Positions 1-64,000 of a stretch of DNA of 64,000 bases are shown piece after piece. Below the pieces are notes generated by a model that worked only from the letters and a program-made list of their open reading frames with translations, did not search any database and had not been told where the DNA came from. The position numbers and the translations under genes were made by a program. Every line of letters begins with the position of its first letter. The stretch's first letter is position 1. The DNA comes from Amoebophrya sp. A120 (taxonomy: Eukaryota > Protista > Dinoflagellata), in assembly GCA_905178155.1 (NCBI GenBank), contig CAJINV010000022.1, positions 124,001 through 188,000 of the forward strand, given 5' to 3'.

Positions 1-2872
1 GCTGGTCCGCAACTCGCCGCTCTTCAAGTACATCGCGTACGATTCTGCTTTGGACGACAACGTGATGAACCAGCACAACCAGACGGAGTTCCGCAACGCG
101 AGCGCGTTCAACAAATTGGAAACCGTGGAGGACAAGGCGTTTCACAACCAGCCGAAGGTGGTGGTGGAAGTGGAGGAGGGCGGGGAGGAAAACGAGGAGC
201 AGGGTGGGACGATCGGCGGGAGGTTGGTCATGCGGAAGAAGAATGAGCAGAAGATGAAGAAGCGGAAGCTTGTCACGCGGAAGGAGTGGGATTTGGTGGT
301 ATGATGGATTTGTCGTAGAAGTTTACGGCTTTGTCGTCCTGATAGTGATGCAACATGCATCCAATGGGATTGGATTCATGCATAATTTGTTGCAGCAATT
401 GATGTTCATCGTTAAGATGTTGATGATGCTATGTGAAACTTTTTCTTCTACGTCGTCATCGGCAAACAAAACATGCCTTCTAAACTCCACCAGGTACTCG
501 ACGAGGGGCACGTGCTGAAGAACCCGCGCACCGCCAAACACTCCGCCGTCGCCTCCATCAAGGCAAAACAGAGAATAATGTGCTCTGGCACCCCTCTGCA
601 GAACAAACTCACCGAACTGCATTCGCTCTTGTCTCTCGTGACCGAGGGCGCCGTGGTCGGCAGCCAAGCTGATTTTAATCGGCGCTTCCGTAAGCCGATG
701 GAGAAGGGCTCGCTAGCGGACTCGACGGAGGAAGAGATCGAGGCGAAAACCAAGGCGGCCAAGCGGTTCAAGGAGGAGTTTTATGGCGTAGTCAAATGTT
801 ACATTCTCAACTGGTACTTACATGATTTGTCATGCAAAAACACTATCACTCTTAACGCTATCAAGCCTTCTCCGCATGACAACTTCTCGACGCGCTAGAT
901 AGCATTATAATAAATATGCTCCAAACCTGTAATGCAAAAGGCGCAACGTTTTCCCTTTCACTTTTGCCATTCTTGCATTACAAATTTTATGTAACAGTTG
1001 AGAATGTCACGTTTGAGAGAGCCATAAGTTTCTGAAGTCGTTTGTGATGCGGCGCAAGAAGGACAGCATCGAGAAGGACATTCCAACGGGGTTTGTCAAG
1101 CGCGAGTTGGAGTACAAGGCCGGCAAGGACCTGCTGGAGGGACACTTGTCGCAAGAGGATCCACAACTTCATGGAGGTGGTGCCGGTGGAAAGCTGAATG
1201 CTGATGCAACCTCTGGCGCTTCTGCTTCCGCGACCTCCTCTTCCTCTGCCGCGGTGAATTCAGTTGTCAAGATGAAAGTGGAAGTTCCGTCCTTGGATGC
1301 GAAAAAGACCGAGGTAGTTCTTTTGCTTGAAGGTTTTGGTATATTCCGAGCAACATTTTGATGATGGGACGATGCCATGCATGATGCAGCTAGTACTTCT
1401 ACTGCGTGACGTCCTTGATGTATGTCTGGTGTGTGGTTGCAATGAAAAACAAGATGTTTTACTCATAGTTTTTTACTCATCACAACTTGTCGAGATCCTC
1501 GTGTGGTGCCCGGTGGTCAAGGACTCCATTCAGGAGAAGATGTACAAAAAAGCTCTCAATACCCGGGATATGCGGCGGCTGTTGCGGGAATTGCAACAAC
1601 AGGGGGAGTTTGGGGAGAACTGGAAGAACGGAAACGCATTGGCGCAGATTGCTAAGCTGAAGCTGCTCTCCAACCACGCAGTGCTGGGACTGAGGAAGCG
1701 CGACCAGGTGCAACTTAGATAGGACTTTTCTTCTTACAGGCTGGCGCGGTCGCCTTCCTGTTATTTGTCGCACAGTCAGCAGTAGACGCTGGGTGAGGAT
1801 GTTTTGCGGAGTTGCAAAGTAAAATGCCGTTACTTGCCAAAACACTTACTCAGAAATGGAACACGGAACTGGGCCCGGATGACGAACTCGACGAGGATAA
1901 GCTGGATCAATCCCCAGAGGGCATTGTCGAGTCCAGCAGCAAGTTTCAGGTGATTCTCCATCTGGTCCAACAGTGGCGGAAAAACCGCGAGAAGTTCGTT
2001 ATCTTCTCGAGCTCAACACAGATGTTAAACTTGCTGGAATACGCCATTTTCGAGCCCCGGAACTACAACGTCCTGCGCCTCGACGGCAGTACAACATCGC
2101 GGGAACGGAAGGACGCGATCCGGAGTTTCCAGGACGAGAAGACGAATCGGTTGATCAACGGAATGCTGCTGTCTACGCGCGCGATGGGTCAGGGGGTGAC
2201 CCTTACTGCTGCCTCGAAGTGTATTATCGTCGACCCGGACTGGAACCCGACGGCGGATGAACAGGCGATGGATCGCATTCACAGAATCGGACAAGACCAG
2301 GACGTCGAAGTCTTCCGGTTGTTCACCAAGAGTTTCATCGAGGAGCACATGTGGTGTTTGCAAACCATGAAACGGATCATCACCAAGTCCGCCTTCGAAA
2401 GTGAGGAACAAAAAAGGTATATTTGTGGTGCCTTGCTGGGAGAAAGAGAATTGTAATGAGGTTAGATGCAGCCGGTTCATCTGGGTAATCAGAATGTCAG
2501 GCTCCTCTTGTCATGCGTGATAGAAAACCGTTACCGTAAAAATTGAAAAACGCTATCAGGTTAATCGCCCAGGCGGATCTGAAGAAGTGCTTCACACTCG
2601 GCCGGGAACCAGCCGCCCACACCTACTGCGAACTGCTGGCGAAAGACGACGGAGTCGCGAAGTCGTTCGCAACGGCGAAAAAATCCGACGAGACCAGCCT
2701 GCTGAAGAAGTGTCTGCTCAGCAACGGGAACACGGTGCTGGACGTGATCAAAAATTCTCCGGACGACGTGGACTTTGGCGACTTGGAAGAGGACGGCAGT
2801 GACGAAGAGGAGAGTGAGGACGAGGACAGCTTTTTGCAGCAGGGGGCGAAGAAAAGGAGGATCGGGATGTAG
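1..2872 (+). CDS. SNF2-family helicase-like ATPase (Rad54/ERCC6-like), 5'-truncated, 6 exons in window
   Basis: Spliced motifs WDLVV|LDEGHVLKN, SGTPLQNKLTEL, LRLDGST, LLSTRAMGQGVTLTAA, DPDWNPTADEQAMDRIHRIGQ. Introns 299-493, 782-1031, 1314-1494, 1708-1853 and 2417-2559 all keep frame; stop at 2872. Confidence 0.9.
299..493 (+). other. GT-AG intron with residual direct repeat
   Basis: GTATGA...CCAG; removal joins WDLV-VLDEGH; GGTA repeated at both junctions. Confidence 0.85.
782..1026. mobile_element. Introner family H
   Basis: TSD AGTTT/AGTTT; ~32-bp TIR TATGGCGTAGTCAAATGTTACATTCTCAACTG; removal gives EEFLKSFVMRR; no GT-AG register. Confidence 0.9.
1314..1494 (+). other. GT-AG intron
   Basis: GAG|GTAG...CGAG|ATC joins KKTE-ILVWCP in frame. 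Confidence 0.8.
1708..1853 (+). other. GT-AG intron
   Basis: CAG|GTGC...TCAG|AAA joins RDQ-KWN in frame. Confidence 0.75.
2417..2559 (+). other. GT-AG intron carrying the introner motif
   Basis: AG|GTAT...TCAG|G joins QKR-LIAQ; contains TTGTCATGC at ~2508. Confidence 0.8.
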
Positions 2873-5490: not shown

Positions 5491-8400
5491 ATGGTCGACC
5501 TTCTCACCGCCACCGGCGCGGTGGTGGGTTCCACCCTGCTGGGCGGCGCGGGGTCCCTGTGGGAATACAACCAGGGCATCTGGCAGTTCGACAAGGCGCA
5601 GCGGCAGAACCAGGTCCACCAGCTGCAGAACATGCGGTGCACGCAGGCCGGTATGTTCCGCGAAGACATCCGAGATCTCTTCGGTTTAACCATCGCGAAA
5701 ATGGACAGCTACTTGACCGTGAACACACTGCAATATGCCTTGCAAAAGTATCATCCTAGTAGAAACGCGCATGACGAATTTGCTCAGCATGACAAATGGA
5801 AACTGTCATGCAGATTTAGCTTGGAAAGGAGATTTGTCTTGCATGATTGCGATTCACACGAGTGCGATGCTTTTGCAATGGATATACAACTCGGGTTCGC
5901 GATCAACCTCTTCTACGACAACGAGTTGTTCAAAGTCGCCCCTTATGTATTGCAAAAATGTCTGGGTCTGGAAGAATGCAACTTGTGATGCTATTTTTGG
6001 AATCCAAAAAAGTCTGTATTGCATGAGCAGCAAGAGTTTTTTTGCTCCGCGGAGAGGGGATTTCTCATGCGGGATAGGCATCAAGATGCCCGCAAAGAAT
6101 TTGTGATGCTGGGGCATACATCACAGACGTCACGGGTCATGCAAAATGTGCATGACAAACCTTGCCATCTCTCAGACCCAGACATTTTTGCATTTCATAC
6201 CCCGACCTGGATTTTCGCCCTTTACGCCCTGTCCGTCGGAGCGTCGGTTTTGTTCTTCGTGCTCTCTATGTGGTACTCGGTTTACGCCTCGATTGCCGCC
6301 CAGTCCTGCACGGTCCGGTGCTTGACGCAAGCGCTCCGCGTTCCGATTCCCCGGGTGGAAGAGTACGCGCACGCGCGGGCGTATGCGACAGACTACGAAT
6401 CCGAGGTGGCGACGGCGTTTCGGCTGCCGTTTCTGCAGAAGCACCGGGCGGGGAGGAGGAAGCCGCTGTTGCATATCCAGGAAAAAACACCCATCCCCAT
6501 CCAATTTTTCGTGCAAAACATGCACCATAAAATCCACTACTTGCCATGCAAATAATGGATGGGGATGGGTGTTTTTTCCTGGATATTGCAGGTCTTCACA
6601 GATATGGTGTTTGGAGGGGGAAAAGATCAAGATGGTGAAAGTCAAAACGGAAGTAGTAAAGCTACGAATTCCACCCAGCAGCACGTCAAAACCGGAGACG
6701 GAACATCAAATGGTAAAAATGGAAAAAATAGTACCATGACAAGTAGATTTAAAAACCTCTTGTCGCCAAAATCTACCCGTTCTACTTCAAAACCACCGGC
6801 AGAGGGGGACCGGTTTGTCCTTCAGTCCCAACTCTCCATACCCCAACTGTGCGCTTCGGACGCGGGGTTCGCACGGGCGGTGGAAGTGGACAAAGAGATT
6901 CTGGGACAAGAGGAAAGTGAGGATGACGACGATAGAGATTCTGACGCCGACCTCCTCGAAGACTCGCCGGTGTCGTCCCCAAATGACCAAAATCGACGTC
7001 CCGATCATCTCACGAAAGACGAAGACGGCGGCCCGGCAAAGATCGCAGTGAGTGAAAGGCCGTTTCAACAGCAAGGGATGGTGAACAATAAAGCGACAAG
7101 ATTCGAGACCACCGAGGGTCATGACAACTCTTCAGATATTAACCACCAGAAGATGAAGACCAAATCTCTACAACTTCGCCGGAGCAACACGACCAAGCGA
7201 ATCCAGAATCGGAATAATAGTAATTTCCACTTTCACTACTTCGACGAGTTCCAAGACCGGTGGCGCGGCTTCGACACGTTAGCGCGAATCTTGATGGGGA
7301 TGGGAACGTATATCCAATGCAAAAGCAAGCATCGTACAACTCGTACTAATTGCAGTGCAGCATGACAGATCTAGCTTCTTAGCTAGTTTAGCATATACAA
7401 ATTGATTCACCTTTTCCTTCTGTGAAAATTGAAATTCGTATATGCTATTTCTACTAGTACTAGCTAGGTAGTACAATGCTTTTCCAATGCATAACGTATC
7501 ACTTACTACAATCAACCGTGTACTACGCGTTAGGTTGGGTGGTTTTCTACAAAAACGAGTATTTGGGCGGATTGATCTACATGGTGTTGCTTACCACGGT
7601 GCAATACTTGTTAACGAAGCTGGAACTGTATTTGAGAAAGTGGGAGGAAGTGAAAATGTTTCTGCTCATCGTCGTTCCACCGGCCTTGAGTTTCCTCATC
7701 GTCATTCTCGCCCACAACGACAATGCGGCGAACAGCACCAATAGTAACCGGGACAGCAAGGAAATTTCCGATGCGGAAAAGTATCTAACCCCGCTCGTGT
7801 TTCTCGCACATTTGATGTACTACAAGGAGCTACTGTGGCTGTCTCCCGCGTTCGGATCGCCCTCGACGAACAATTTTATCAACTGCAAATAAAGTATCGT
7901 ACGTAGTAGTAATTGCAATACAAATTATCTCAGCGTGACAAATGGAATTTGTCATGCTGTTTTGCCTTGGGATGGGGATTTGTAATGCATAACTGCAATT
8001 AGTACGAGTGCGATACTTTTTGCACAGGATAAATTTCCGCGCGACGCAATTCACGGAATTTCTGACCAGCTCGGCGTCGACGTTAGTGAAGGAAAAACAG
8101 ACCACTTTGGATTTGTTTGATAAAAGCGAGGAGATGCTGTTACACGAGATTGTTGAGGAAGATCCGGACGAGATGACGGCTTCTAAACAAGGTGGACGCA
8201 GCAAGAGCCCGCTCACAATGGGCGGGCTGGGAAGCCGCGGTCATTCTGGGTCCTCTGAGGTGCTCGGTGACGGAACAATTGCGGGTGGGAATACAAGTGG
8301 TATTGGCAGTAGTTCTAGAAACTTTGTTGACCAGCAGGCTGTGGGCCTCCACGGTGAAAACAGTAGAGCAAAGGGAGTTACCTTCCAGGAGGAGTCCTCC

Positions 8401-11400
8401 GGGACAAAAGGTCCCGCAGGGCGAGCTGCATCTGCCACTGCTTCATCCGGAAGATCTTCTGTCACTGCAAGAAGTTCCACAGAGCTCTTTCCCGGGCAAG
8501 AGGAACTCGAGCTGCGACTCGCATCCCTGCTCCAACTCTTCAATAGCGAATATGTGACGGCGCAGCTCGACGAAATTCGCTTGTCAGTCGTGGAGCAAGT
8601 GACCGACTCGTTCGCGAAGGCGCAGCAACTCTTGAACACAGTGGAACGGTTGAGGGAAAGCCGGAAGAAAAATAAAGCCGTAGTTGCAACTTTATTTACT
8701 ACAACAGCCGGGATCTTCGGGAACAAGAACAACACTTCTAAAGCCAAAAAGCTAAAAATCGAGAAGAACCGGGCCTACGTCGAGCTTTTCTACTACTCCG
8801 ACCGGGGAATCCCCTTGCCGTACTACGTGAATATCCCGTGCAAAAGTATCGTACTCGTACTAATCGCATTCATGCATTACAAATGTCTTTCTCAAGTTCA
8901 ATACGCATATACAAATTTTATTTCTCATGCTGAGGCAATTTGTATTGCGATTTATACAAGTGCGATACTTTTGCACCGCATAGTGAATCCAGTGTTACAA
9001 CAAACCACCTGGGACAAACCCTTGGACTACAAGCCACCCAATTTGTTCACTTTGCAGCGCGCCGGGAATTTCTTTGCCAAGGCGGTCAGGAACGGGATGG
9101 AAAAGGAGGAGGTTATTTTGAGTACAACTACTCATGTCCGTGATCAAGATCATGCGGGGGACCCCCACGACGACGGCATCAATAGCGCTGAAGCTGGACC
9201 ACACCATAGCGAAGCCGAAGAGGGCGGCACCGGAGCAGGAGGTAGTGCGGTATCCTGTGCAAAAGTATCGTACTCGTATTGCAATCATGCACTACAAATC
9301 TTGTTCTTAAGGTAAATTAGCATTTACAAATTTTATTTCTCATGCTGAGGAAATTTGTAATGCATTTATACGAGTGCGTACTTTTGCAATGCATATGCGG
9401 AATACAGGAACAACAACACTGCCGGCGGTACTACAAACGTGGCTGGTACAAGTACAACCACGAGAGAAGATTTGCTAGACGATGTGAACACGACTGAGCG
9501 GAATGTAGTACTCGCTGCAGACGCTGTGAACATCCAAATCACGACCGCTCAAGAAGAACATCGGACGACTTCTTCCACCGTTAAAAATCAGGGCGAAAAA
9601 ACGTTGACGAAAGCCAAATCCCGATCCATCGTGCGATTCGGCAGCTCTGTTTTCGACGGGACAAACCACTACCTTCACGACGACATGTATGGAACTGCCA
9701 GAATCGAAATCGTCAAAATCGAAATGATTTGTGATGCATAAAATCGATACGAGTTGGAGCCTCAGTTTCCAAGTGGCGCATGACAAATTTCGGGAGCACC
9801 AAAATCCACTCTGTCGCGCTGTTTGGGCAAAGAAGACTGCTCCTGTCATGCTACTCTGGCAGCACATCGTCTTCCCCGAAGCAGGCTTAGAATCGGTCTC
9901 ATTTGCCTGCGCCCCAGCACAGACCTTGCGCGCCCTACATTTTATGCATATGCAAGTTTTTCGATTTTGTCGATTTCGATCCTGACACTCCCATAACATG
10001 TACGACGGTGCGAGCGCGGACGCCTATTTGTATAGCAACACTTCCCAAGCAGCTTTTACGATCGAGGGTCGGCACACGATGAGTGATAGTTTTGACTACA
10101 ACGCGGAGGGTGAAGATAATGGTCCTCATGATCATGATGCAAGAGCTGCAAAAATCATGTCGCCGAACAAACTGATCAAGCACCATATGGCAGTGCACAA
10201 CTCCCCTTCCCCCTCATTTGAATAGCATGAACGGCAATACAAGCATCAGCAAGACTGCCGGATTTGCATCGCAAATTTGCACTGGAGTGTAGTTCTGTTT
10301 GGGCTCCTACCAGAATTTGTCATGCATAATATTGACAGGAGGGAAAGCGTGGATTTGGTATTCTGCATGAGAAATGAGAACGAAGGGGTGTTGTGCACTG
10401 TCATACACCATCTAACCGAGATAGAAGACACGATCCGCACCGTGACGCAGGAAGACGATCCTGAGATGAACGACTCAATTCTGAAGGGAAAACCAAACAA
10501 CACAAGCACAACTGGAGGCAGCAGATCCGTACAACAAAATCGACGCAAACTGGCACAGCAACCCAGTTACATCGTCCGGACTTCTTCTGGCGCGAAGGTT
10601 TCCCATACACCACCACTGCCGCGGACCGCGACGGCGACGAGCTTGCCGAACGCAGTGCCGGAAACGTTCGGGCGGTATTTACCGAAGGTGGTCACGACGC
10701 AACAGAACAAATTCGACCAGGACTTGCCAACAAGAATTTTCCGGATTGGCACCGGAAGTGTTTTCTTTCTCTCTTTCGTCTGCTTCGTGTGGAGTATCCT
10801 CGTGTTGTTCGATTTCTTGAAGGTGGGAGGCAGTGTATCCCGTGGAAATACTGTTTGTTCACTGTGATGGTTTTCTTGCAAGTTTTGCATCACAAGTCTG
10901 TTCTACTTCCTACATCACAGGAATAGACCAAGTTTGCCATGCGAGATTCCTAAGGTGAAACACGCCTACAAATGCATTATCGTGCATGTGTAGCAAGACA
11001 AACACTTTTGCGATGCACTTTATGCACTACAAGTTCTCAGTGAAGCAGTTTTTTCTCGTGATGCAGCGGGAAGCCGACACTGATCCACAACGGCACGACG
11101 CACCAGAGGGATATGTCGTCGGCGAGTCGGTATGCACTGCAAATTGTATTACAAAGCATTGCAAATGAAATTTGTAATGCTGTTTTACGTGAGGAAGGAT
11201 ATTTGTCTTGCATAACAGCAATTACTACGAGTGCGATACTTTTGCAGTGGATAGTCGGGTAATTCGACGTCGGGTCAGGAGGTTGGAGGGGGAGGATGTG
11301 GATTGGGGAATGGAGAGTGGTGATGTCGATGTAGCAGAAGAAATTGCATCACGAACTACAACTGCCGCTGGAAGCAATTCGAATTATGAAAGAGGGCATT

Positions 11401-14216: not shown

Positions 14217-15604
14217 ACCGCCTCCGAGATGATCTGCTCCACGTCGGCTATAGTACGATCTGCGCAGATATCGAAAGAAAAAGTGTTGACGTTACGGTTT
14301 TAAGTTTTTTGGAAAAAAAAAATTTTGGGTGTATGCTGGAGGTATGTTTTTGGTTTGTAAGTCGACCCATTCCCGCTATTCGTTCTCGCGGGACTGCGAC
14401 GAAGCTCGCTTGGTTTGACCTAGCTAGTGCACAAAATATGACGGCGTAGGACTTCGGCGACCGGGGCCGCCCCCTGCCGTGCCTTCTCCTCGCCGCCGGC
14501 TCTTAGATCCGGGCCAGAACGCTCAAACCTCGAACCGTGGCTAAACCTCGGACGTGTGGACCTATGAGCTTGCATCTAGATGGCGTTTCCGCCAGTTCAG
14601 CTCTGTGCGGCTGTGCAAGTTTCCATCTCGGACCTTTTGGCGCCTTTTGTCAAATTTTCTCCATGACTGAAGAAAAGGTGGCACTTTCGAGGATGAGGGA
14701 AATGGGCAAACTTTGGGTACCAAAATGCCCAAAATTTGCAGGCACCCCAAAAACCGTCAACACCTCATCTAGACACTACGGTATGGTCGATCGGGTCTTC
14801 CAGAAGCCTGCTTTTTTGCATGAAATCGACCAAAAAACCGTCAACACCTCATCTAGCCAGCACGCTATGCTCGATTTGCCTGCTCAGAAGGTGCGCTCCC
14901 GTGCCCGCACCGGTTTGAGTGAAGGGAAATGGATCATAGCGTGCTGTCTAGATGAGGCGTTGACGGTTTTTGTGGGATCTGCATTTTTTGGCCTCGAAAT
15001 GGCGTCAAATCATTGATTTTTTCCTCGGATTTTTCCAATTCCCCAAAAAACCGTCAACATCATATCTGGACAGCATGCTAAGGTCCATTTTCCCTCAATA
15101 AAACAGGTCCATCTCCGGCGTCGATCGTTGCGACGCGTTGGTGGGCGGGTCTTGTCAGCAGTGCCGGGGCCCTGGCCCACCGGCTTACAGCCATCATGGC
15201 TCTTGAGCCCGGACAGGGATTGGGCAGCCATTTCAGGGCTTGAAGGGGCGCAATGTTGTGGCGGGGCCTCATAGTTTTCGCACCGTGTGCACTAGCTTCC
15301 TCTCCCAGAGTTTTACCACTTTAGAGCCCCGCAGGGGCAAAGAATGAGGCTGCGCGGCGGCGAGAAAAAAAAAAATTAAAATGATGGTGCTCAGTACCCA
15401 CAAAAATTTTTTTTTCCAAAAACCCGAAAACCGTAACGTCAACACTTTTTCTTATGATAGCAGAGGAGGTTGTTCATCTCCAAGTGCAACAAGTTGCACG
15501 AAAACCCTACCGCCTCCGAGATGATCTGCTCCACGTCGGCTATAGTACGATCTGCGCCACGGAGGTTGTTCATCTGCAAGTGCAACAAGTTGCACGAAAA
15601 CCTA
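14217..15604. repeat. 96-bp tandem repeat (about 2 units) interrupted by a TIR element
   Basis: ACCGCCTCCGAGATGATCTGCTCCACGTCGGCTATAGTACGATCTGCGC at 14217 and ~15509; GGAGGTTGTTCATCT..AAGTGCAACAAGTTGCACGAAAA at 15465 and 15561. Confidence 0.85.
14269..15459. mobile_element. 1.19-kb non-autonomous TIR element (family G), intergenic
   Basis: TSD GCAGA/GCAGA; ~65-bp imperfect TIR TATCGAAAGAAAAAGTGTTGACGTTACGGTTTT; four internal AAAACCGTCAACA..CAT-type repeats, one inverted. Confidence 0.9.
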
Positions 15605-36600: not shown

Positions 36601-36812
36601 GGACGATCGTAAACAAAAACAGGTCGTGTCTGCAGCTGATGGTCCGACCACTCTACGTTGATTTATTCGACTCCTCCGACGTTCCATCCCCCACTCTCCG
36701 TCTTGGAAATTTGACTCCCACCGGATAAAGATCACTTCAGCAACGTCACTCAGCCGACATCAAATCTTCAAAACAATCGACCCATCTCCAAAACAAGCAA
36801 CCCCGACCGGCC

Positions 36813-51800: not shown

Positions 51801-54800
51801 TTTGGACTACTGGAAATCGGACGACTTGACGCCGAATATCAAAAGCTGCGGGACCTGGCTTCGAGCGAAAAATACAAGGTTTACATTTCCGACGACAACC
51901 TCGACGCCGACCCGCGGACGGTCACTGCTGAAGAAAATGGCATTGGCATTCACCCTGCTAACCTCGCTATGCCAGAAAAAAACCGTGTGAGTGTAAGTCT
52001 GTAGTGCGAAGTATGCAGGGGGCTGGGCGGACAGTTACACTTGTCATTCTGGCCAGCCATACACATACCAGCGCCCTCGCTTCATTCGTGTTCTCCTTCT
52101 CGCGTACTCACCGTGCATGAGAGGAATTCTCTGTCATGCAGAGCAGATAATAATTTGTCATGCTCATGTTGTTGATGTCTATGGCACGACCCCGAGGCAC
52201 CTATAAATGATACTACGATTTCTAGCACAGTGGTTTATTTTTTCTTGTATACTCGCGCAGGCCAGGTGTCTACTGATGTCGATGTGGATTGGAAAGGTTC
52301 TACCAACCGAGCAGGCGGGCGCAGGGTCAAGAACAAGAACTGGCGATTCATCTTCAAGCGCAGCAGGACCAACTGACGCATCAGCGACGGAAGATGATAT
52401 TAGAACCATCGGCAGCTGCTCAAGCGATGACGACGGACCGGATGACGACAGCACTGACGTCAGCACACCGGAATTGTTGAAAAAACAGATTATTCAACTG
52501 GGGAAAGAAATGCGGCTCGTTGATATGAAGATCGGCGACCTTGCGGCAGATGTGAACGAGAAACAGATGAGAAAGGTAGAAGAAAAAATTGAAGAGAGAA
52601 AAGATGGGACGAGATGGAGTCCGAACTATATGTGGAAGCTCGTGAAGGCACAAAGAGAGTTCTCAGTACAGCTATTGGAACTTGCAAAGCGCGACCGCAA
52701 GTACCAAAAGCTGCGGGACCTGGCTGCAAGCGGAACATACAACATTCCTGACGACGACCTCGACGATGACCCGCGGAAGTCTGATGCTTCGATATTTTCG
52801 CGGATTCATTTTCTCGCGAATGCGAGGGCCGCCTACGGGGAAGTGACCGGAATTGCCTCACGACCAACCGAGCAGGCGAGCGCAGAGTCAAGAACTGGCG
52901 CTTCCTCAACTGCAGCACCAGGACGGCCTGCCGCATCTTCAGCGACGAATGCAGCTGCTCCTGGAGCAGGGGAAGATGTTGAACTACGTGTAACGTCCAG
53001 CACGTCACCAGGCCCTACAGTCGAACAGAAACAACGACGGCAGAAGGCACGCGACAGGCTGGAAACATTGTCGCAGGCGACCATGCCGGACTTTATTCGT
53101 CTGGCAGAAGCCGCCGCTGCCGACGGCCTAATAACCACCGAGTATCAAATGCAAGTATATCTGGGTCGTCTGGATGAAACTTATGATGCAAACCAGGAAA
53201 AAATAACGGACGCGCTGTAAAAATATTACGCGGCCATGCATGACATAGGTTTTGAGCAGCTACGTGTTGCGTATTTCGCATGGCAGAATGCGCAGATTTT
53301 GCATGAGACAAGGACGATCTGTCAGTTTGCAGCTACGAATGACAGAGTTCCGAGTCATGTCAGAGTCAGACGAGCATGACAAAAATAAATCTTGCAATGT
53401 TCCAGACCCAGACATATTTGCAATTGATACTGAGCAAAAGCGCACGTTTGTGGAGTATTTGGAACAACAACTCGCGAACTTTCGCAGAGCGCATCAAGTG
53501 TGGGAATTCTCGGAAGCAACACTGTCACGAGCCGATTTCGAGGACATCCTGGACCAGGAAGAAAAGGCTGTGCGGCGGACGGTGCTACAGGGGATAAAAC
53601 AATGGACGGAGCTCATAATGGTGCAGCGAATCAAGATCCACCAAGCACACGAAGCAGCACTTCCGCGCTCTTCTCTCGCACAGCCCGCACCAGCAGGGGC
53701 TTCCTCTTCTGATACAGGAGCAACTGCAGTTGCGGCACCGGCGGCGGAGGACAGTGCGAGTCTGGGGCATGACGTAGTGCTGCAGAATCAAATTTTGAAC
53801 GTTCTGCGAGAACAAGTGCCACCAGCTCTGCCTCTAACGCAGTCGGAGCAAGAATTCCGTCGTCTCTGGGACGAGCGAGAGCGTCTTTGCGACCAGGGCC
53901 GAGCAAGCCGTGCGACAACTGATAACGACATGCGGAGCTGGCAACTAACAGGCTTACTAGAAGATGATCACAGCACGACCGCGCCGGATGAACAACACCT
54001 CAGGCGACAGAGAGACCTGCAAGACCAGATGGTGTTGCGTCTACTATGGCGGCCAAATGCCCTGGATGTACTGGACGAAAGATCAACAACAGAGCTACCG
54101 ATGTGCCAGCACACCCTGTTTGCCATTCGGGTCCGTTCCCCCGCGGCCGTGCAGCAGGTGCAGGCACAGCAGCCTGCAAGCGCAGGATCAAGAGCGGGCG
54201 CTTCCTCGAGTGCAGCAGGACCACCTGCCGCATCAGCGACGGAGGCTAGTAGGAAGACTCGCCCAGCACAGGAGGAAGAGGAAGACGTAAATCTACTTCA
54301 CCAAGGAAGTGGTGGTGAATCTAGTAGTACCTTCTCTTCACCGCCACGCCAGGGTAGACAACTACCACCGGGGGATCCTGTTTCTTCGGCGCCAGATCAT
54401 GCTGGGCCGATGACGCCACAGTTCGGTCGTGCAGCGGGGGAAAGAAGAACAAGCGCAAGTTCATCTTCACAGCCTCGAGATGAACTACCGCCTCATGATG
54501 CTTCGTCGGGGGCACGGGCAGCAGGCGGTGGTACAATTTCTGCCGGAGGAATTGAGGCCGGTGCCGGAGATGAAAACACTGCAGCAGGAGCTCCTGCTGC
54601 TCTGGGTCTGGTTCCGTCGTCCTCAACTACTGCTCCTGGTGCTTCGGGTCCAGAACCAGAAGAACTACCTCAGCCTGGTCGACTACGATCACTGGTTCTA
54701 GGACCACCGAAAGTGGACCAGCATGATGTCGACCACCAGGGCCAGCAAATAAAGCAGCACCGCGGAGGCTTGTATTCGTTGGCTGGGCCGATGACGCCAC

Positions 54801-57800
54801 AGTTCGGGCGCGCAGCGGCGGGAAGAATAAGCGCAACTTCATCTTCACAGCCTGCTCGAGATGAACTACCGCCTGATGCTTTATCGGGGGTTGCAGGCGG
54901 TGGATCTTCTACTTCGAGAGCAGATGGCGCAGGAGCGCACCAGAACATCAACCCTAGTGCCACTGCTACTGCTGCTCCGCCGCAGTCGCTACTGCAACAA
55001 GGCGGGCTTCGGGCTGCGCTCACTGCGTCGCCGGTCATCGAAGGCACGCCAGCGCCGCCGTACCGAGAAGAGCAACTTAGAGGAGGAGCAATAGCCCCCT
55101 CTTTGCAGGAAGAAGGTCTCGGTCTGCTCTCGCACCCACCTTATAGTTCCGCAACAGCAATACGCGAAGGAGTTGTTATAATAGATGAAGGCCCAGGTGG
55201 TACTAGTAGCTCGTTGTTCATCCCGTCTGGGCATGGTTCTGCAGGAGCTCTGGCAGCCAGTGCCGCGACGTTTTACCCAGAGCCAACGTTTTACCCAGAG
55301 CCACCATATCCCACTTCTAGGGACGGTCTTGATCCTCAACCGCTTTATTCCTCCGACCGCCCGCAGCTGTATCATGGCGCCCGGGTAGACCTAGATGACC
55401 CTACCCACCCCATCAACCAACCATTAGATCCAGAGCCCGCGCGGGGACGAGGCGTAGTTCAAATCGCCCGTTCCCGCGGTAGCAGCGTGGACTCGATGCA
55501 GGAATTACATGGCGGCAACTATAGCGGGATTAAGACCGCGGATTACACGTCGTCCACAGTGTCGCCGGCGACTGCGGGCGGAATTGTTTCGCCGTCTACG
55601 GTATCGCCACTATCAAGCGCAAATATGATGTTAGTCATCCAGAGCCAGTTTGGTTTTGAAAGATGAAGGGGTTGTTGAGTATTATAAGTTCTGTGTGATC
55701 TTGCTGTTTCGCCTTTGGCTTTGCATCATTCGAAGCGAGGAACACCGACCGCACTTTGATTTTTACCGACTGGGACTGGTGCTCTGGTATTACTAACATC
55801 CTACTTGCCGAGTGCATACCCATCCACTGTTGTGATAGGAGACGTCGACGCTAGGGGAAGGAGTCCTTCTCCCGAGGACGCACGACCGCTGGAGGTTCTT
55901 CTCGACCCGCACGACACAGGACAAGAACCACAGCACCAACAACCCCCACCCGCACGACCTGCTCTTTTAGCTGGTCAGCAGCACCAGCGCCATCAATTCT
56001 CCCCACATGCTGCAGAATTTCGTCCGGGGATGGTTTCTCATGGGGCGGTGGCAGCCCCGCAGGAGCAAACACCCCAAGGAGAACTACATGTAGGACAACT
56101 AGTGCAGCCACCTGCAGCAGGTGGGAGTACTCCAGCGATGGCTCTGCAGCCAATACTAGGCAACATGTCCAATGCAACAGCCTCCGACTACCATCAATAT
56201 GCAGCCCCGAACTACGTCTATCCGAGCCCGTATCCAGGTTCTTGGGGCTCGCCGTTGAGTGCAGCTGGAACGAGCTTTTATCCCCAGCAGGAGCTGCAGG
56301 AGCAGCAGCTGCAGCAAGAAGCACTACAATACTTTGCAGCTCCCGAGCTGCAACAACTACAACACGAGACAGGCACTGCTTATTCCCCAATGATGTTCTC
56401 ACCTATGGTCCCGCCGCCGCAGGGAGGTTACAATCAAGGTCATCAAGCTGCTCAAGCCGCAGGACATCTTCAACTAGGTCAGCAACAAATGCAGCAGCAA
56501 ATGCAGCAGCAGCAAATGGTGCAGCAGCCGCCCATCATGGGTTTCATGCAGCCGATGATGAGTCAGAGTCCGATGTCTACTTTCAATGTTGTGCAGCCTA
56601 TGATGCAGCAGCAGCAGCACCTTTACCAGCCACAGATGCAGATGCCTCAACCGCAGCAGGTTGCTGCACCGACGCAGATGCAGCAGCACCAGCAGGTTGT
56701 TTTTCCGGAAGCTGGTGCTACGTCAACACCGATGCACTCTCAGCAGCAAGAAGGCATTCGCCAAGGCCAACAAACGGCTGCGACTGATGAGTCACAGCTT
56801 GCTTCTGCTATGAGCGTGCACAACACCCCCTCATTTCAGGGACATGAACATGTCATCTAGCAACACAACTACTAACAACCTGCGAGGAGATGTGCTGTAG
56901 CTTTCGAATGACAGATGATCCACACCCAGGCTTTATTTGTACAGTTTGGGCTTCCAGAACTTGTCATGCAATGCCCAGATAGGATTTAGATTTTGCATTT
57001 TGGATGTGGAGTCGTGAGCAGGAACAGGATGAGAGGGAGTTGTGCACTTTCATACCGGGTGGTGCTGCGCCCCCGCCAAACCGCGAGCGCGCCAACCCCA
57101 ACGTTTGGAAGGGAGTCCCCGCGCAAATATCGTTACTGGCCGCGGGATATCTTGTGCAAAAGTATCGTAGTCATATAAATGCAAGACTTGCATTACAAAT
57201 CCTTTTCGTAGGGTAAATTCGCATTACAAATTTCATTTCTCATGCTGAGGGAATTTGTCATGCATTTATACGAGTGCGATACTTTTGCAGTTCATACGGG
57301 AGCCGCCGCCAGCGGAGGCAAGGAAGCACAAGGCCGGTTTCCAAGGACGCCTAAATTTGGAAAACGAGGTGACTCGTCGAAGAAGACCACCAGCGGTCCA
57401 GTAGATTCGGACGACGAGCAGAGCCCCGCCGCGAGTAGCTCAACGTTTGCCCGCGTTCCAGAGGACCCATCTTCTCCTTCTTCTTCGCCAAACAGGCCGA
57501 TTGCAGAGCAGCGCAGATCGTCTCCCCAACGCCAAATAGAGCAGGTTGAGGAGTTTGAGTTTCCGACCCGCGGCCGAGGTGGAGGTGGTCTGTTCGGGTT
57601 CCTGCATGATAGAGGTCGCGTAGAAGCGACCCAGGATCCTACCCAAGCGACTGGCTCTGGGACACTTCATGGCGTTGGAGGAGGTGCTAGTAGCTCTTCG
57701 TCGGCCCTTCCTATAGCCGGTGTACAGGCGGAGCAAGAGCAACAGCGAGAAGAACAAGAACGCCCGCACGAGAACCAGGAGACGCAACGCCTGCTGGAAC

Positions 57801-58499
57801 GAGTGCTGCAGAGCCAGGACGATTACAGAGAAAGCAATTTCCCTGGTTTCCTAGAAGCCGGTCGCGAAAGAAAACGAGAAATATTGAGACAATTCGAGTC
57901 ACATCTATGAAAGCCTCAGGTTGGAAATCCTCAAAGTGAAAATAATTTGTAATGCAAAAAAACGACTCCAGTTGGAGCACCGTTTCTAGTCGGCGCATGA
58001 CAAATTTTCCGGGCACTCAAAACGTGTCTGTCATGCTAGTTAGGCAAAGGGGTGCCCTTCTCTCATGCTAATCAGCAGCCTAATTCTGAACCCGTAGAAG
58101 CACAATAGTCGGCCTCCATTGCGTTCTCTGCAATACAGTCTTTTTGGTGCCGCATTTCATGCGTCACAAATTATTTCCACGTTGAGGATTTCCATTCTGA
58201 GGGTGTCATAACATCTCCGAGGCACTGGCATGCTCCGGAAGGTTTTACAAGCCCAGAGGAATAAGGAGGCGCATCAGCAGCGAGAGCAGCGAGAACGAGA
58301 AGTTAACTTGAGTGCAGCACGAACGAGAACTGACGAGCGAGTGCAACGAGAAATCGTGGAAAGACAAAGAGCAAAGCAGCGGAGGAGTCTGAGTGTGGGT
58401 GCGGAGCCTAGGTCTACTGCGCTGGGGCGAGGAGAGCACGAGGAAGAAGAACCCGCGGCCGAGGTCGTCGAATCTGATGCGGAAACGTATTGGAAATGA
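36813..58499 (+). CDS. Giant lineage-specific protein (~5,240 aa if all 20 introners are spliced), with internal helical repeats
   Basis: Twenty successive element removals each land in the frame of the next ORF (21,687 - 5,973 = 15,714 nt). Weakest joins are at 38399, 41050, 55624 and 56809. Confidence 0.65.
37574..37719. mobile_element. Introner family A (reverse orientation)
   Basis: TSD CTACA/CTACA. Confidence 0.92.
37775..37938. mobile_element. Introner family G (ACA end)
   Basis: TSD CGTCC/CGTCC; TATCAAACAAAAAAGTGTTAAC...GTTAACACTTTTTCCTGTGACA. Confidence 0.9.
38399..38616. mobile_element. Degenerate introner
   Basis: TAT...GATA; flanks GTGGG/CTGAT; GCATGACAG inside; element+5 keeps frame. 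Confidence 0.5.
39643..39792. mobile_element. Introner family A
   Basis: TSD TGCAC/TGCAC. Confidence 0.92.
39867..40126. mobile_element. Introner family B
   Basis: TSD GAACA/GAACA. Confidence 0.92.
40672..40933. mobile_element. Introner family B
   Basis: TSD CGAAC/CGAAC. Confidence 0.92.
41050..41309. mobile_element. Introner family B between duplicated exons
   Basis: Family B TIRs, ends GCATC; no 5-bp TSD; flanked by a ~110-bp duplication. Confidence 0.8.
42330..42582. mobile_element. Introner family B (in-frame, stop-free)
   Basis: TSD ATGCT/ATGCT; perfect TIR TATCAAATGCAAAAGTGTCTGGGTCTGGAA. Confidence 0.93.
42626..42861. mobile_element. Introner family H (opposite orientation to 782)
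   Basis: TSD GTTTG/GTTTG; TIR shared with 782-1026. Confidence 0.92.
44222..44529. mobile_element. Introner, singleton
   Basis: TATCATGGAGAAAA...TTTTCTCGATGATA; flanks TCGCT/ACGCC; frame restored. Confidence 0.75.
46214..46536. mobile_element. Introner family D
   Basis: TSD GGGCA/GGGCA. Confidence 0.92.
46819..46971. mobile_element. Introner family A (reverse orientation)
   Basis: TSD GTAGT/GTAGT. Confidence 0.92.
47367..47684. mobile_element. Degenerate introner, singleton
   Basis: TAT...CATA; TSD CACCG/CACTG; frame restored; TIR weak. Confidence 0.65.
47761..49133. mobile_element. 1.37-kb foldback (palindromic) element within coding sequence, 8-bp TSD
   Basis: TSD GCAGCACA twice; ~120-bp TIR starting TATGAACGTGCAAAATGCAAAAGGGGTCAACCTAAACAGAGAAG; symmetry axis at ~48447; removal gives VEAAHDDNY. 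Confidence 0.93.
51968..52251. mobile_element. Introner, singleton
   Basis: TSD CTCGC/CTCGC; TATGCCAGAAAAAAACC...GGTTTATTTTTTCTTGTATA. Confidence 0.85.
53143..53429. mobile_element. Introner family B
   Basis: TSD CCGAG/CTGAG; removal gives GLITTEQK, matching the uninterrupted repeat GLITHEQK. Confidence 0.92.
55624..55803. mobile_element. TIR intron without apparent TSD
   Basis: TATGATGTTAGTCATCCAGAGC pairs with GCTCTGGTATTACTAACATCCTA; 180-nt removal keeps frame. Confidence 0.65.
56809..57054. mobile_element. Introner family E
   Basis: TIR TATGAGCGTGCACAACACCCCCTCAT; flanks TCTGC/CCGGG diverged; element+5 keeps frame. Confidence 0.8.
57148..57296. mobile_element. Introner family A
   Basis: TSD CGGGA/CGGGA. 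Confidence 0.92.
57906..58210. mobile_element. Introner family D-like
   Basis: TSD ACATC/ACATC; TIR TATGAAAGCCTCAGGTTGGAAATCCTCAA. Confidence 0.9.
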
Positions 58500-60546: not shown

Positions 60547-63500
60547 ATGTCGCGGTTCCCTCCAGCAAAAAGTATTCCAAAATGGCTTTACCTGTGCGCG
60601 GTTACAATACAGCGGTCTGTCTTCTCCGCGGCGCCAGCTGCTGCCCCAGGAGCCATTCCTCAGACACCCTTTTCGCCAAATCCCCGCACAGGAGGAGGAA
60701 CGCGACGAGAGGACAGGGGAAAAGAAAAAGTCCAGTATCAATGTCGTGCCGCAGACCACGATTTTTCAGCTCTTTCTGGACAAATGGAAGCCATGTCAAT
60801 CGGAGGAAACGGAAAGGCAAGAGGACCAGAGGCTGCACAACATCCTCTCATCGAGTCCTTGAGAAGCATGTCGCTTGGATCTGGTGGAAAGACAGAAGCG
60901 AAAACTGCTACGCCGAGTTATATTGCATCATCGATGATACAACCCAGCAGTTGTTGCACCAGTGTGCAACACGACGCTAAGCCGGCTTCTCCCTTCCCCT
61001 GGCCGACCGAGTACCACGATGGATGGTGATGAGCTTTTCAACATGTCCAGAGACGTGCTCGAATTGGTGCGCAACCTGATTTTACAAGAGACGCACGCCA
61101 TTTTTTCCTGCGCGGCAGAAGGTCCTGGTTTTGTAGACAAGGCGTTGGCGTACGAGCGAACAATGCGGTCGGCGGTTTTGTCCAATTTGGAAAAAGTTAG
61201 CAGCCAGTCGTATCAGGGGAAGAGAAATATTAAGGGGATAGCACAGGAAAAGGACATGGATAGTATCAAGCGCCGAAAAGTTGCTGTGCTGTCAGCTGCA
61301 GAAGAAGGATATCAAACTCAACAACTCCTGGTGATCCGCGCCCGGTTGCTGGCCCTCCTTGTCTTCACCGACATCCGGCGGTTTATGTTTGAAACGGCAA
61401 AACATTGGTCAGACGAAACGCGGGAACAGTATCGCTGCCGAGAACCGTCGAAAGGACATTTGCTTGAGCTATTGCGGGAATTGACGAGGGAAGATGAAGC
61501 GATGACTAATCGTCCGGGGAATGCTAGCCGCGATACACCAAGGCCAATCATCAGCCAAATGTTGAATTTTCTCGCCGAGGAAGTGCGAGAGGTCGGGGAA
61601 AATCGAAACGCGAGCAACGGCGTGAAGCGGCTCGTAAGTGAGCAAGATGGTATTGATCACGTGCGGGCGGCAGCGTTGCGGGAGAAAGACAAAGAAGCTA
61701 CAACATGTTATCCACCGTCTTCAAGTAGTTCTTCTGCTGCAACGACCGCGTCCACGGCGGCGTCTTCTAATTCCGGTGGGTCAACATCTGCTGGCTCAGG
61801 CTCAGCATCCGTTGCTTCTTCACACCCTTCTGCACGAGCAGATACGATCACCTATGACGACTACATGGAAAAAACGTTGGAATACACAACCCGACAGCTC
61901 GGTGTAGCTTTTCGAAAATTCGCCTCAACCCCGATGCGGTGCGCTTTAGCGGGCTTGCGCTACCCGCATGAACTCCATGAAACAACAGTTGCAGTGTCAC
62001 CCGACCGAGCCTGGCTGTACCGGGTGCTTTGGGCGCTCACGCACTGCGCGCCAGCGAGAGTCGCGCAGGGGAAAACAGAGTATGACAAGCTGGTGCAGAA
62101 AACGGGTGGTCTGCCTTCGCCGGATGCGTACCGGTACGCCAAACTCGGGGCAGAAGTGGTGGACGACGAGGACGAGGACGATGATGATGCGCGTTTTCCT
62201 GACAAGGAGTTGAACAGATCCAAATCATTTTCAGCGTCATCCGGAGGAGCAAATAGAGCAATGACAGCATTCAATATCGCTGGTGGTCCAGCACTTGATG
62301 TTCCTCCCACAGAAATAACATCAAAAGAAGACCGCGCGAACATCAAGCACCACAACCACAAGCCACGTCTGAAGTTCAAAGTAGCTCCCCGATTTTGGAC
62401 CTTTCAATCAGAACCGCTTCCGCACTTTCACAGCAGGCTGGTGTTCGAGCTAGCAAGGGCTGACGCGGTGAAGCAGGCAAAGCTGAAAATGGAGAGAAGT
62501 AGTAGAAGCTGCCAACCGGGGAGCTGCAAACGAGGTGGAGTAAAAGGGGGTCTTTCCGATAGTTCGCGAGCACGTACTTCTAAAAGAAGAAGCCACGACG
62601 GGCAAGACGAAGACGACGATGTAGAAAAAAACGAGCCATTCCTGGTCAACACCCTGAAAGACGCGGTGCGGGGGATAAAGCTGAGGCCCGCACAATCGTC
62701 GACGTTCGTGGGCCCGCTGTGGATTAACTCTGCACAGCGCCAGGGTGAATCTCAGGAGCCAGCACAGGTAGAAAAGTTTATCACTGCAGCCCTGCAGAAC
62801 GACATTTCCTCTCGCCCCGAACAGGATCCGCGCCGCATGCAGCTGAAGAAAGCGCTGCAAAACATTCGGAACTTCTACGAGTCGGATTTTGGTGTGCCAC
62901 GAGAATTTTTACAGCCAACAGGAGGCCAACGCGACGCGGAGCAAGCATCTGCTACTTCAGCTCCACAAAAAACGAAGAAAGAAAAAGACTTTGAGATCAA
63001 CATGACTATCGACGCCAACTGCGTGAAAAAGCGGCTTGCCTGGTGGGATCGCTTACGCACGTTGGACGACGATTATAAGCGAGATCCCACCAGTGAAGAT
63101 TCGTCGGGAAATGAGAAAGACAACCTGGAGCAGCGGTTTTTGCGAGCCAAATTTGAACAGGAACAGGGAATCAAGCGAGGCAAGCGCATGATCCAGGCGA
63201 CCATTCGGCAACAGCAGGAAAATAATGGTGGTTCTCGCCGTCGACAGCGTCAGGTGGACGAGGACTTTTTATTGTCGCACCAGAGAACAACTACCACTGT
63301 GTTCGCCGCCGCGTTCTACCGAGACGACCGATCAGGCATTCGTGCGGTTTTGCTGCGAGCCTTGTTCCAGGTCGTAAAAGAGATACGCACCGGGATCACA
63401 GATAACATTGAGTGGGTCGGTATCCACTGCAAATCTGTCTGGGTCTGGAAGATGGGCGGGAAAGTTGTTTGTCATGCAAATTGTCCATGTTGGCCCGCGA

Positions 63501-64000
63501 TGCCTGTGAGACGACCTGCTCCAGCTTCACAGCTTTCGCGAAGGCTTGCCCATGGTCATGCCTATCCTGCACGAGAAAAATAAAATGCCATCTCCGAGGG
63601 GCAAAAATCTGAGTGCTTTTGTTGCTCATGTTGCAGAAGTACAGGTTTTTTTATGATCGACAGTTGGAGGAATCACAAATCCCATAATTCTACTTTCCCG
63701 ACCCAGACGTATGAGAAAAAGCAGCACTTGTATGCACATCCGAGAAAAGATTTCGAGACACAGAAGCGAATCGAAACAACAAGGATAGCATGCGTGAATG
63801 AATGAATGAATGACCCAGACGTATTTGCAATGCATAGGCGGCACGGAGCTACATAACGGAGCAGCACTTCGACGAAAAGTTTTTGCACAGATTGCCACAC
63901 TATCAAATGTAAAAATGTCTGGGTCTGGAAGAATGCGCGATTTGTCATGCAGCTTTTCCATGGCCCATGAGCCCAGGAATGCGGGACCTAGCATGACAGA
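60547..64000 (+). CDS. Lineage-specific protein (C..GLRYP family), 3'-truncated by the window
   Basis: 873-aa ORF 60962-63583, plus a probable first exon from ATG 60547 and exon 63842-63900. Confidence 0.7.
60919..60971. mobile_element. Possible minimal 53-bp introner
   Basis: TATATTGCA...TGCAACA; flanks CGAGT/CGACG; 58-nt removal fixes the frame offset between the two ORFs. Confidence 0.4.
63421..63836. mobile_element. Introner family B with nested insertion
   Basis: TSD GTCGG/GGCGG; TATCCACTGCAAATCTGTCTGGGTC...GACCCAGACGTATTTGCAATGCATA. Confidence 0.88.
63713..63811 (+). mobile_element. Short retroposon-like insertion
   Basis: 13-bp direct repeat GACCCAGACGTAT on both sides; (TGAA)4 at the 3' end. 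Confidence 0.55.
63901..64000. mobile_element. Introner family B, truncated by window end
   Basis: TATCAAATGTAAAAATGTCTGGGTCTGGAA. Confidence 0.85.

Follow-up and report, generated by a model that had tools for sequence, protein, structure and literature searches.

A conserved nine-nucleotide motif with fixed spacing in Amoebophrya A120-type introners, a putative subterminal transposase site

In a 64,000-nucleotide stretch of the Amoebophrya sp. A120 genome (contig CAJINV010000022.1, positions 124,001 to 188,000; hereafter the window), the word TTGT[CGA]ATGC recurs on both strands within short elements bounded by terminal inverted repeats (TIRs) and 5-bp target site duplications (TSDs), which are A120-type introners. 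The evidence supports a common, selected cis-element, as a sequence-only reading of the window had proposed; that reading offered either a transposase site or an excision signal as its role. We put the probability that a shared transposase uses the motif as a subterminal site at about one half.

Both the mobility of A120-type introners and their splicing in the absence of GT-AG ends are open questions according to the accessible part of PMC7789003. One word with a fixed geometry in all families could be used to pull down the protein involved, to screen for an autonomous element and to mark fossil introners among ordinary introns. If the motif is a transposase site, one enzyme serves many differently ended families; a host splicing signal would instead represent a new way of defining introns.

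Distribution of the motif

The window contains 90 exact sites, 41 as GCAT[GTC]ACAA and 49 as the reverse complement, against a chance expectation of 2.04 ± 1.24 (maximum 6) in 100 dinucleotide shuffles of the window, and the fourth middle-base variant, GCATAACAA, has 0 occurrences there. Forty short TIR elements, totalling 9,098 bp, hold 84 of these sites (9.2/kb), and 38 of the 40 have at least one (Table 1). Eight other introns (1,593 bp) hold 3, the sites at 52155 and 2508 lying inside GT-AG introns without TIRs, and the remaining 53,309 bp hold 3 (0.06/kb). The recurrence across introner families and the rarity in exons and intergenic DNA, the latter previously judged by eye, are thus confirmed, as is the lack of the motif in the two elements longer than 1 kb (L1 and L2), which holds even at 1 mismatch. 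The positions cited earlier were exact for 827, 975, 5787, 8874, 6101, 6150, 9729, 9778, 10317, 28492, 26995 and the singleton at 44284, while three needed small corrections (25036 to 25046, 37826 to 37825, and 52136 to 52155, position 52131 holding a variant with 1 mismatch).

Table 1. Elements, introns and motif sites in the window. '<' denotes TTGTVATGC and '>' GCATBACAA on the + strand; numbers of sites refer to the motif.
Feature	Positions	Strand	Sites and remarks
Family H introner	782..1026		827(<), 874(>), 975(>); RNA joint 776->1027
GT-AG intron without TIR	2417..2559	+	2508 exact, plus two with 1 mismatch; all '<'; RNA joint
Family A introner	5734..5884		5787
Family B introner	5944..6199		5983, 6101, 6150
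Family C introner, spliced	6474..6585		one 1-mismatch site, no exact site
Diverged family A introner, spliced	7311..7493		one 1-mismatch site, no exact site
Family A introner, spliced	7877..8031		7949, 7980
Family A introner	8832..8982		8874
Family A introner, spliced	9251..9395		9355; orientation opposite to 7877 copy
Family D introner, spliced	9688..9995		9729, 9778
Family E introner, spliced	10186..10405		10317
Decayed TIR element, non-canonical splicing	10836..11066		10887 and five 1-mismatch sites
Family A introner	11131..11253		11172
L1, 1,191-bp intergenic element	14269..15459		5-bp TSD, G-like TIR, no motif
Decayed TIR element	16469..16698		no site at <=1 mismatch; spliced in three runs
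Family F introner, spliced	17070..17352		17148, 17313, both '>'
Family D introner, spliced	17440..17739		four sites
Family A introner	22251..22400		22293
Two '<' sites 18 bp apart	22950..22976	+	near gene end, outside any called element
Family B introner	24139..24387		three sites
Family F introner	25015..25293		four '<' sites
Family A introner	25459..25603		three sites
Family F introner	26246..26509		three sites
Family C introner	26963..27071		tandem sites 26995, 27027 (32 bp apart)
Family D introner	27115..27426		three sites
Family D introner, TSD decayed	27475..27782		four sites
Family F introner	28414..28789		five '>' sites; orientation opposite to 25015 copy
Diverged family F introner	32608..32940		three sites
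Family A introner	37574..37719		37642
Family G introner	37775..37938		37825, 37897
Family A introner	39643..39792		two sites
Family B introner	39867..40126		two sites
Family B introner	40672..40933		three sites
Family B introner, TSD decayed	41050..41309		three sites
Family B introner	42330..42582		three sites
Family H introner	42626..42861		two sites
Predicted intron without clear TIR pair	44222..44424	+	44284; boundaries uncertain
Family D introner	46214..46536		two exact sites
Family A introner	46819..46971		two sites
L2, 1,373-bp foldback element	47761..49133		TAT ends, 8-bp flanking repeat, no motif
Predicted GT-AG intron without TIR	51987..52260	+	52155 exact, plus two with 1 mismatch; all '<'
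Family B introner	53143..53429		53374
Family E introner, TSD decayed	56809..57054		56961
Family A introner	57148..57296		three sites
Family D introner	57906..58210		two sites
Extended family B introner	63421..63836		63469
Family B introner, cut by window end	63901..64000		63942

A motif-blind search of the window and 542 kb of a second assembly yielded 373 elements, namely 355 members of 11 families and 18 singletons. The 5-bp TSD was a condition of the element finder, having first been noticed by eye in the window before the finder was used; among family B elements defined by TIR alone, it was perfect in 110 of 126. The elements are TIR/TSD insertions found in both orientations, with 2–7 motif copies each, and summed DNA-contig depth reaches 134,616 over element bins versus about 28 in unique bins. 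Each of the 22 consensus ends starts T-A/G-T-C/G (TAT in 21), and A stands at positions 11–14 in 16–20 of them. The earlier description of the families' TIRs as unrelated was therefore overstated: all consensus ends start alike, the TSD is common to all families, and some family pairs keep internal homology after masking.

In the 12.7 kb of intergenic DNA, 0 of 39 short elements were found, and hence there is no unspliced control. L1 has internal repeats of its own that echo its TIR, and its region shows no RNA depth over 14422–15675; L2 interrupts a reading frame. Viral contigs gave 0 matches to the family A and B TIR patterns, and the 29 loci there that match the tandem-motif pattern include none homologous to the elements.

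Conservation and spacing

At up to 1 mismatch, the motif is present in 372 of the 373 motif-blind elements versus 62 of 363 shuffled ones, and its enrichment persists when family homology is taken out, since all 11 family consensuses carry it with each family counted once. Nor do the families look like descendants of one element in which the motif is no better kept than its surroundings: in all 9 families with n>=6 (9 of 9), column identity is 0.85–0.94 in the motif versus 0.64–0.82 in the flanks, and after masking no homology remains in 45 of 55 family pairs. The other 10 pairs keep some homology at z>2.5 (4 of 55 pairs show internal homology at p<=0.01), and families A and I have a whole cassette in common. 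Private changes number 135/5485 in the motif versus 1221/21088 at other non-CpG sites, so that the motif changes at about half the rate of neighbouring positions; the excluded middle base occurs in only 4 of 786 sites. The extended form reads W-T-T-T-G-T-[CGA]-A-T-G-C.

The arrangement of the sites is also constrained. Same-strand pairs lie 30–33 bp apart in 9 of 11 families, with unrelated spacers, and the flanks of the consensus tandem pairs are identical at only 6–10 of 20 positions, for which reason a recent duplication as their origin was rejected. The first site stands at +32–34 or +40–44 from an end (for family B, 55 ends at +33, 226 at +40–42 and 11 at +34–39), and 661 of 726 element ends have a site no more than 56 nt away. 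The terminal 14-mer itself contains a site at only 2 of 22 consensus ends (A left and K left), so it was rejected as a degenerate form of the motif. These spacings fit DNA helical phasing, as judged from about 14 partly related family ends and from Rayleigh figures that, being based on hand-picked modes and periods of 9–12, are descriptive only.

A putative site for a shared transposase

Under the reading that we favour, all these non-autonomous families would be copied by one transposase system, which itself or through a cofactor would dock at the motif in double-stranded DNA. This reading draws on the near-universal presence of the motif in the elements, its constraint and spacing, the lack of strand bias in young copies, the lack of covariation between facing sites, splicing in elements or introns without it, and the precedent of known subterminal binding. 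Protein subunits would bind the motif array on one face of the helix, with pairs three turns apart, and would bring the ends together before inserting the element with a 5-bp stagger, which is typical of integrase-type DDE enzymes. Only copies with intact arrays would leave daughters, and this could keep the motif in both orientations. Splicing would be specified mainly by the ends, where N|TAT may mimic a GTAT 5′ site and the cut may fall 4 nt past the right TIR, and any help from the motif in splicing would be secondary.

The motif appears to track the mobility system, because the two TAT elements with 8-bp TSDs (L2 and L018:1612-2134) both lack it. L1 speaks against a transposase site, because it lacks the motif despite its 5-bp TSD and G-like TIR. 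The proposal is also weakened by the finding of a transposase domain in 0 of 87 ORFs (82 of 155 long locus ORFs and 5 window ORFs), in agreement with Farhat et al., who report none in A120 in the portion of PMC7789003 available. No autonomous partner with matching ends and repeats was found in the 542 kb plus the window, and no candidate was found for a protein that binds the motif.

Splicing and alternative explanations

RNA contigs show that 9 of 13 testable short elements in positions 1–18800 are removed precisely, at non-canonical boundaries and together with one TSD copy; the splice runs come from one sample, with the tool label 'RNA?', and also skip 4 GT-AG introns. The intron 16468–16702 fixes the splice register at -1/+4 relative to its element, and this element is skipped in three runs at exon depth. 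It has no site within 1 mismatch, and the motif is thus not an obligatory excision signal. The 1708 intron has no motif at up to 2 mismatches.

A host role in splicing is a less probable reading. Read on the transcript as UUGUVAUGC, the motif could be an intron-definition or splicing-enhancer element, placed some 25–50 nt from the 5′ splice site within the intron and frequently repeated about 32 nt further on. It would help a spliceosome without a recognisable U1 snRNA to find non-canonical ends, and its presence on both strands of introners would allow splicing in either orientation. In the available text of PMC7789003, U1 is described as undetected in A25 or A120, and a comparison of the window with Rfam returned no RNA family and no snRNA.

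Support for such a signal comes from introns without TIRs, in which sites cluster nearer the 5′ end and lie on the sense strand in a ratio of about 2:1. In 102 predicted introns without TIRs or family homology there are 10 exact sense sites versus 1 antisense (0.5 and 0.6 expected), a sense excess that was also seen at up to 1 mismatch (21 versus 7) and that argues against a transposase site, because neutral fossils should be symmetric; coding DNA shows no enrichment (2 and 7 versus 2.6 and 2.8 expected). Among 88 GT-AG introns without inverted repeats, 10 of 23 sense sites fall at +24..50, where permuted words give 1.08, and strand-called orphan sites are 21 sense versus 9 (p=0.043). Exact tandem pairs 31–33 apart also occur without family homology (L031, L079, L061, L032, L034), and L1, the one 5-bp-TSD element without the motif, is intergenic. 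However, the intron set consists of our own noisy HMM predictions, and the bias is weaker in one filter (23 versus 16, both about 3.7-fold enriched, one intron being counted twice for its two strands). Of the 36 'unique' introns with a motif, 4 can be recognised as fossils, and comparable counts could arise from decayed copies of families outside the sample. The 9:0 count obtained after fossil removal is post hoc and was not used as a test.

The introners themselves also argue against a host splicing signal. Young copies show no strand asymmetry, whether in motif orientation (128 versus 134), exact sites (282/769 versus 268/751) or private changes (55/2214 versus 46/2044, p=0.69), a test of limited power, since no more than about one in four private changes must have arisen after insertion (TSD divergence of about 1.4% per copy versus 5.8%). 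Furthermore, 47 of 48 A/K copies have no sense site at +27–50, yet family A is spliced both ways; the F copy at 17070 is spliced though its exact sites are '>' only; and the motif-less element is spliced. A more ambitious version is doubtful. In a lineage without recognisable U1, the 9-mer would be the code by which the host itself defines introns, and a factor occupying two sites 32 nt from each other would gauge how far away the junction lies, whether the intron is GT-AG or non-canonical. Thousands of transposons would have become harmless introns because both of their strands carried this code, and their fossils would make up many of the 'canonical' GTAT introns.

It is improbable that a host DNA-binding or chromatin protein binds the phased array as a co-transcriptional intron mark or as a bending cofactor in transposition. 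It would account for the strand-blind constraint, the helical phasing and the both-orientation sites in TIR-less introns, with no shared transposase needed, and the motif may resemble an HMG-box or Sox-Oct-type composite site. Intergenic enrichment is small, however (3 and 4 exact sites versus 1.2 and 1.0), the sense excess would be unexplained, and there is no candidate protein.

It is very improbable that the motif has no function and simply survives from one ancestral element, or that it is just one arm of internal RNA hairpins: the terminal features common to all families, the residual homology of 10 of 55 pairs and the A–I cassette are in its favour, as is the pairing of sites in predicted folds (0.64–0.82 versus 0.53–0.64 for other inner bases), but the reduced rate of change, the excluded base and the keeping of spacer length without spacer sequence speak against it. 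Facing sites show no compensatory covariation, as middle-base pairing is seen in 45 of 155 cases in family B (68.3 expected), 5 of 14 in D (5.2) and 4 of 11 in H (5.4), and pairing between sites is rare within families F and K (2 of 36 and 0 of 6); a hairpin-only role was therefore rejected, and the motif is sequence-specific rather than merely a stem.

Comparison with known systems

Among known intronic words are the branch point yUnAy, PUF sites of the UGU type and the RBFOX site GCAUG. Both orientations of the motif hold a central UnAy, as branch points do. Unlike branch points and enhancers, the motif is fixed at eight positions whichever strand it lies on, and it shows no strand preference in young copies, which also lack the 3′ preference of branch points. 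A branch point recognised by standard U2 is disfavoured, since the excluded base would pair best with the standard U2 sequence.

Ginger-like and other integrase-type transposons resemble the elements in having TIRs with a short TSD. The Ginger terminus is TGT, whereas consensus ends here have TAT in 21 of 22 cases and TGT in 1. The motif resembles the subterminal repeats of miniature inverted-repeat elements (MITEs) in having several copies near both ends that are conserved above their flanks. According to the accessible sections of PMC12130899, family 38 of A120 is a TIR element with Copia/Gypsy-like ORFs and a candidate mobiliser, and is without Ginger termini and TSDs.

The published A120 introners agree with those of the window. 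Their inverted repeats start with TAT, followed by about 7 variable bases and an A-stretch (available parts of PMC7789003 and PMC12130899), and short direct repeats of 3–5 nt over the exon-intron junction, non-canonical splicing and repeated families are described in the former; in our data this direct repeat proves to be a 5-bp TSD, with splicing in the -1/+4 register. Family lengths are also alike, at about 106, 149, 160, 252–260, 305 and 1,191 bp, among 19 of the 58 rows listed for A120. The portions of both papers available describe terminal inverted and direct repeats, with no common internal motif or spacing rule, and we found no published report of the motif.

In the accessible text of PMC1636448, transposases bind subterminal repeats cooperatively, and rice mariner-like, Sleeping Beauty, pogo, hAT and CACTA elements are cited for subterminal binding. 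The repeats of Emigrant/Lemi1 described there resemble the motif, as non-autonomous TIR elements carry several short copies of them in either orientation, some tens of bp inward from the ends. Known subterminal repeats match part of the TIR, and those of Emigrant/Lemi1 copy the 3′ half of their own TIR, whereas one word here spans 11 families with different inner TIRs and only 2 of 22 ends hold a site, which weakens the transposase reading. Unlike MITE repeats, moreover, the motif has a length-conserved partner at 31–33 bp and occurs in TIR-less introns too. Its anatomy, with same-strand pairs 30–33 bp apart and first sites at +32–34 or +40–44, is new.

Elements and their detection

The genes in the window are eukaryotic, all read as + strand, and are broken up by short elements with terminal inverted repeats (TIRs) and 5-bp target-site duplications (TSDs); a strand classifier assigned 32 of the 35 window elements to + and left three uncalled. 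Contigs of a second assembly were fetched with the family-B TIR pattern, giving 163 loci (541,655 bp merged, none overlapping the window) in which family B is over-represented by design. A motif-blind element finder, which gave no hit in 398 kb of shuffled sequence, called 373 elements, 35 of them in the window, forming 11 families (A to K) and 18 singletons. None of 39 short elements lies in the 12.7 kb of intergenic window DNA (p ~2e-5 under uniform insertion, with estimated gene limits); insertion or retention of short elements is strongly exon-biased.

Features of the window (plain coordinates) and of second-assembly (L018 to L065) or viral-collection (L165, L175) sequences
Position	Feature	Observation
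1708	Intron	Spliced, no motif
3900-5270	GC-rich intergenic block	Unlike surroundings, no RNA depth; possibly another mobile element
6474; 7311	Elements	Spliced, one degenerate site each
10835-11067	RNA joint	Ends three bases short of the usual register; AG two bases downstream unused
14209-14265 / 15500-15557	Longer duplication	Flanks L1
14269-15459	L1, long element	5-bp TSD
16467-16703	RNA joint (intron 16468-16702)	Runs from one base before left TIR to four after right TIR
16469-16698	Element	Spliced, no motif
26508-26954 / 27949-28413; 40903-41049 / 41279-41425	Local gene-sequence duplications	Beside introner clusters
26510-28850	Gene segment	Perhaps rearranged or broken
40679-40720	RNA match	A few X5/X6 reads match family B TIR and first motif, two differences; exons uncovered
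47761-49133	L2, long element	72%-identical foldback within coding frame; second class (8-bp repeat, TAT-ended, motif-less)
L018:1612-2134	Element	Same class as L2; seemingly nested inside another element
L054; L061:3739-4039; L062:2807-3076; L065	Repeated family	Extra, motif-bearing, missed by the finder
L165:2990-3170; L175	AT-rich contigs	Dense TGTCATG cluster beside short direct repeats; no homology to introners

A conserved and regularly spaced internal word

The sequence-only reading had noted the word GCAT[GTC]ACAA in introner families with supposedly unrelated TIRs, and its recurrence is borne out: word and complement (TTGTVATGC) are found at 90 places in the window, where 2.04 would be expected, and all 11 family consensuses contain the word. 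It is also as rare elsewhere as had been claimed, with 84 of the 90 sites inside 40 short TIR elements, three in other introns and three in the remaining 53 kb, and it is indeed absent from both L1 and L2, the elements longer than 1 kb. Over the window and the second-assembly loci, sites number 8.6/kb inside elements versus 0.9/kb outside, where 330 of 411 sit in element-homologous DNA. An exact site is found in 349 of the 373 elements, and one with at most one mismatch in 372, as against 62 of 363 shuffled ones. When words were ranked over the consensuses, the runners-up were nearly all shifted or one-mismatch forms of the motif, whose longer consensus reads A-T-T-T-G-T-[C>G>A]-A-T-G-C (middle T in 4 of 786 sites).

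With the motif masked, 45 of the 55 family pairs align no better than shuffles, while A-I, E-F, D-J and E-K still align (p<=0.01), so that the families are partly related; B has no partner. The unrelatedness of the TIRs was overstated, as the family ends have TAT, an A-tract and TSD length in common. The possibility that the motif is no more conserved than its neighbours is contradicted, as its columns exceed the flanks in all nine families tested, and trees give motif/other change ratios of 0.19-0.49 for internal branches and 0.48-0.64 for terminal ones. Facing sites show no covariation, so the constraint is on sequence and not on pairing. The internal word is under selection and is more than inherited.

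Sites are also regularly placed. A same-strand pair lies 30-33 bp apart in 9 of the 11 families (28 in H, 35 in G), with unrelated spacers. The first inward TTGTVATGC is at +32-34 or +40-44 (one J end has it at +55), with family B divided between +33 and +40-42, and in families A and K the sites face the opposite way. Three turns of B-DNA span 31.5 bp, and from about 14 partly related ends we infer that the spacing reflects helical phasing.

Splicing of the elements

The RNA evidence comprises contigs of three "RNA?" runs from one sample, matching the window nearly letter for letter. Among the joints listed, these skip four GT-AG introns, 9 of the 13 short elements in 1-18800 and two decayed elements; per short element, the skipped stretch is the element plus one TSD copy, and once the elements are deleted in silico the second gene regains a frame of 3,660 nt. 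All 11 element-type joints are compatible with 5′ cleavage one base ahead of the TIR and 10 of 11 with 3′ cleavage four bases beyond it, and one joint (16467-16703) pins this register. The resulting N|TAT therefore resembles GTAT, the commonest start among predicted GT-AG introns (22 of 87), many of which may be fossil introners. Several predicted introns, in the window and the loci, start with GTATAG and not GTAAGT. An element and an intron lacking the motif are both spliced, so the motif is not an excision signal needed for removal.

Candidate functions

We propose, with a probability of about 0.5, that the motif is a subterminal site of a transposase system. Element orientation in genes is balanced (128 vs 134, families with one-sided arrays included), and in young copies the sites are equally intact in either transcript-reading direction, a comparison in which weak strand selection could go undetected because as few as about a quarter of the private changes may have arisen after insertion. 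Together with motif-less splicing and the absence of the motif from both 8-bp-TSD elements, these observations favour a DNA-level site linked to one mobility system. Against this reading, L1, which carries its own internal TIR-like repeats, inverted and direct, echoing its TIR, or its ancestor moved without the motif. No transposase was found among 87 ORFs, namely 82 of the 155 long ORFs of the second-assembly loci and five of the window.

A host splicing element is a less probable function, opposed by the motif-less splicing and the strand-equal young copies. Its support comes from introns without family homology, in which the motif is enriched, mostly on the sense strand. In this HMM-predicted set, three of four RNA-verified GT-AG introns were exact and both decayed non-canonical ones misplaced. 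Sense and antisense exact sites number 10 vs 1 in 102 introns (after removal of 151 of 253 candidates that were TE-like, repeated or had short flanks), 4 vs 1 in 42 strict introns (relaxed, 21 vs 7) and 6 vs 2 in 88 introns without inverted repeats (relaxed, 23 vs 16), where sense sites concentrate at +24-50. Of 59 non-coding orphan sites, 30 could be assigned a strand, 21 of them sense and 9 antisense; the list takes in a single exonic site as well as some elements that went unrecognised. Fossil elements can supply motif sites in TIR-less introns: 4 of 36 motif-bearing introns retain residual element homology, and simulated 20-25% decay loses most inverted repeats and leaves 0.15-0.25 exact sites per element. 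The strand excess, however, is not predicted by fossil origin and counts against the mobility-system reading. Dual use, by transposase system and host splicing, is possible and is counted within those two readings. That the word instead binds a host DNA-binding factor is improbable, and a functionless relic is more so, since motif positions change less than others (private changes, 0.025 vs 0.058).

Relation to described introners

The motif is undescribed in the literature searched by its four spellings and by topic, a search with most subscription journals outside it. It is not found in the available text of PMC7789003, whose figures S14, S19 and S25 might show it, nor described in the accessible parts of PMC12130899, PMC9860276, PMC11282704 and PMC12787238; a universal, spaced internal word thus appears to be unreported. 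At 1,191 bp, L1 is exactly as long as fam103 of A120 (27 copies) in the available portion of the PMC12130899 supplement. The elements themselves are of a known kind, their anatomy agreeing with the description of A120-type Amoebophrya introners in the portion of PMC7789003 available to us.
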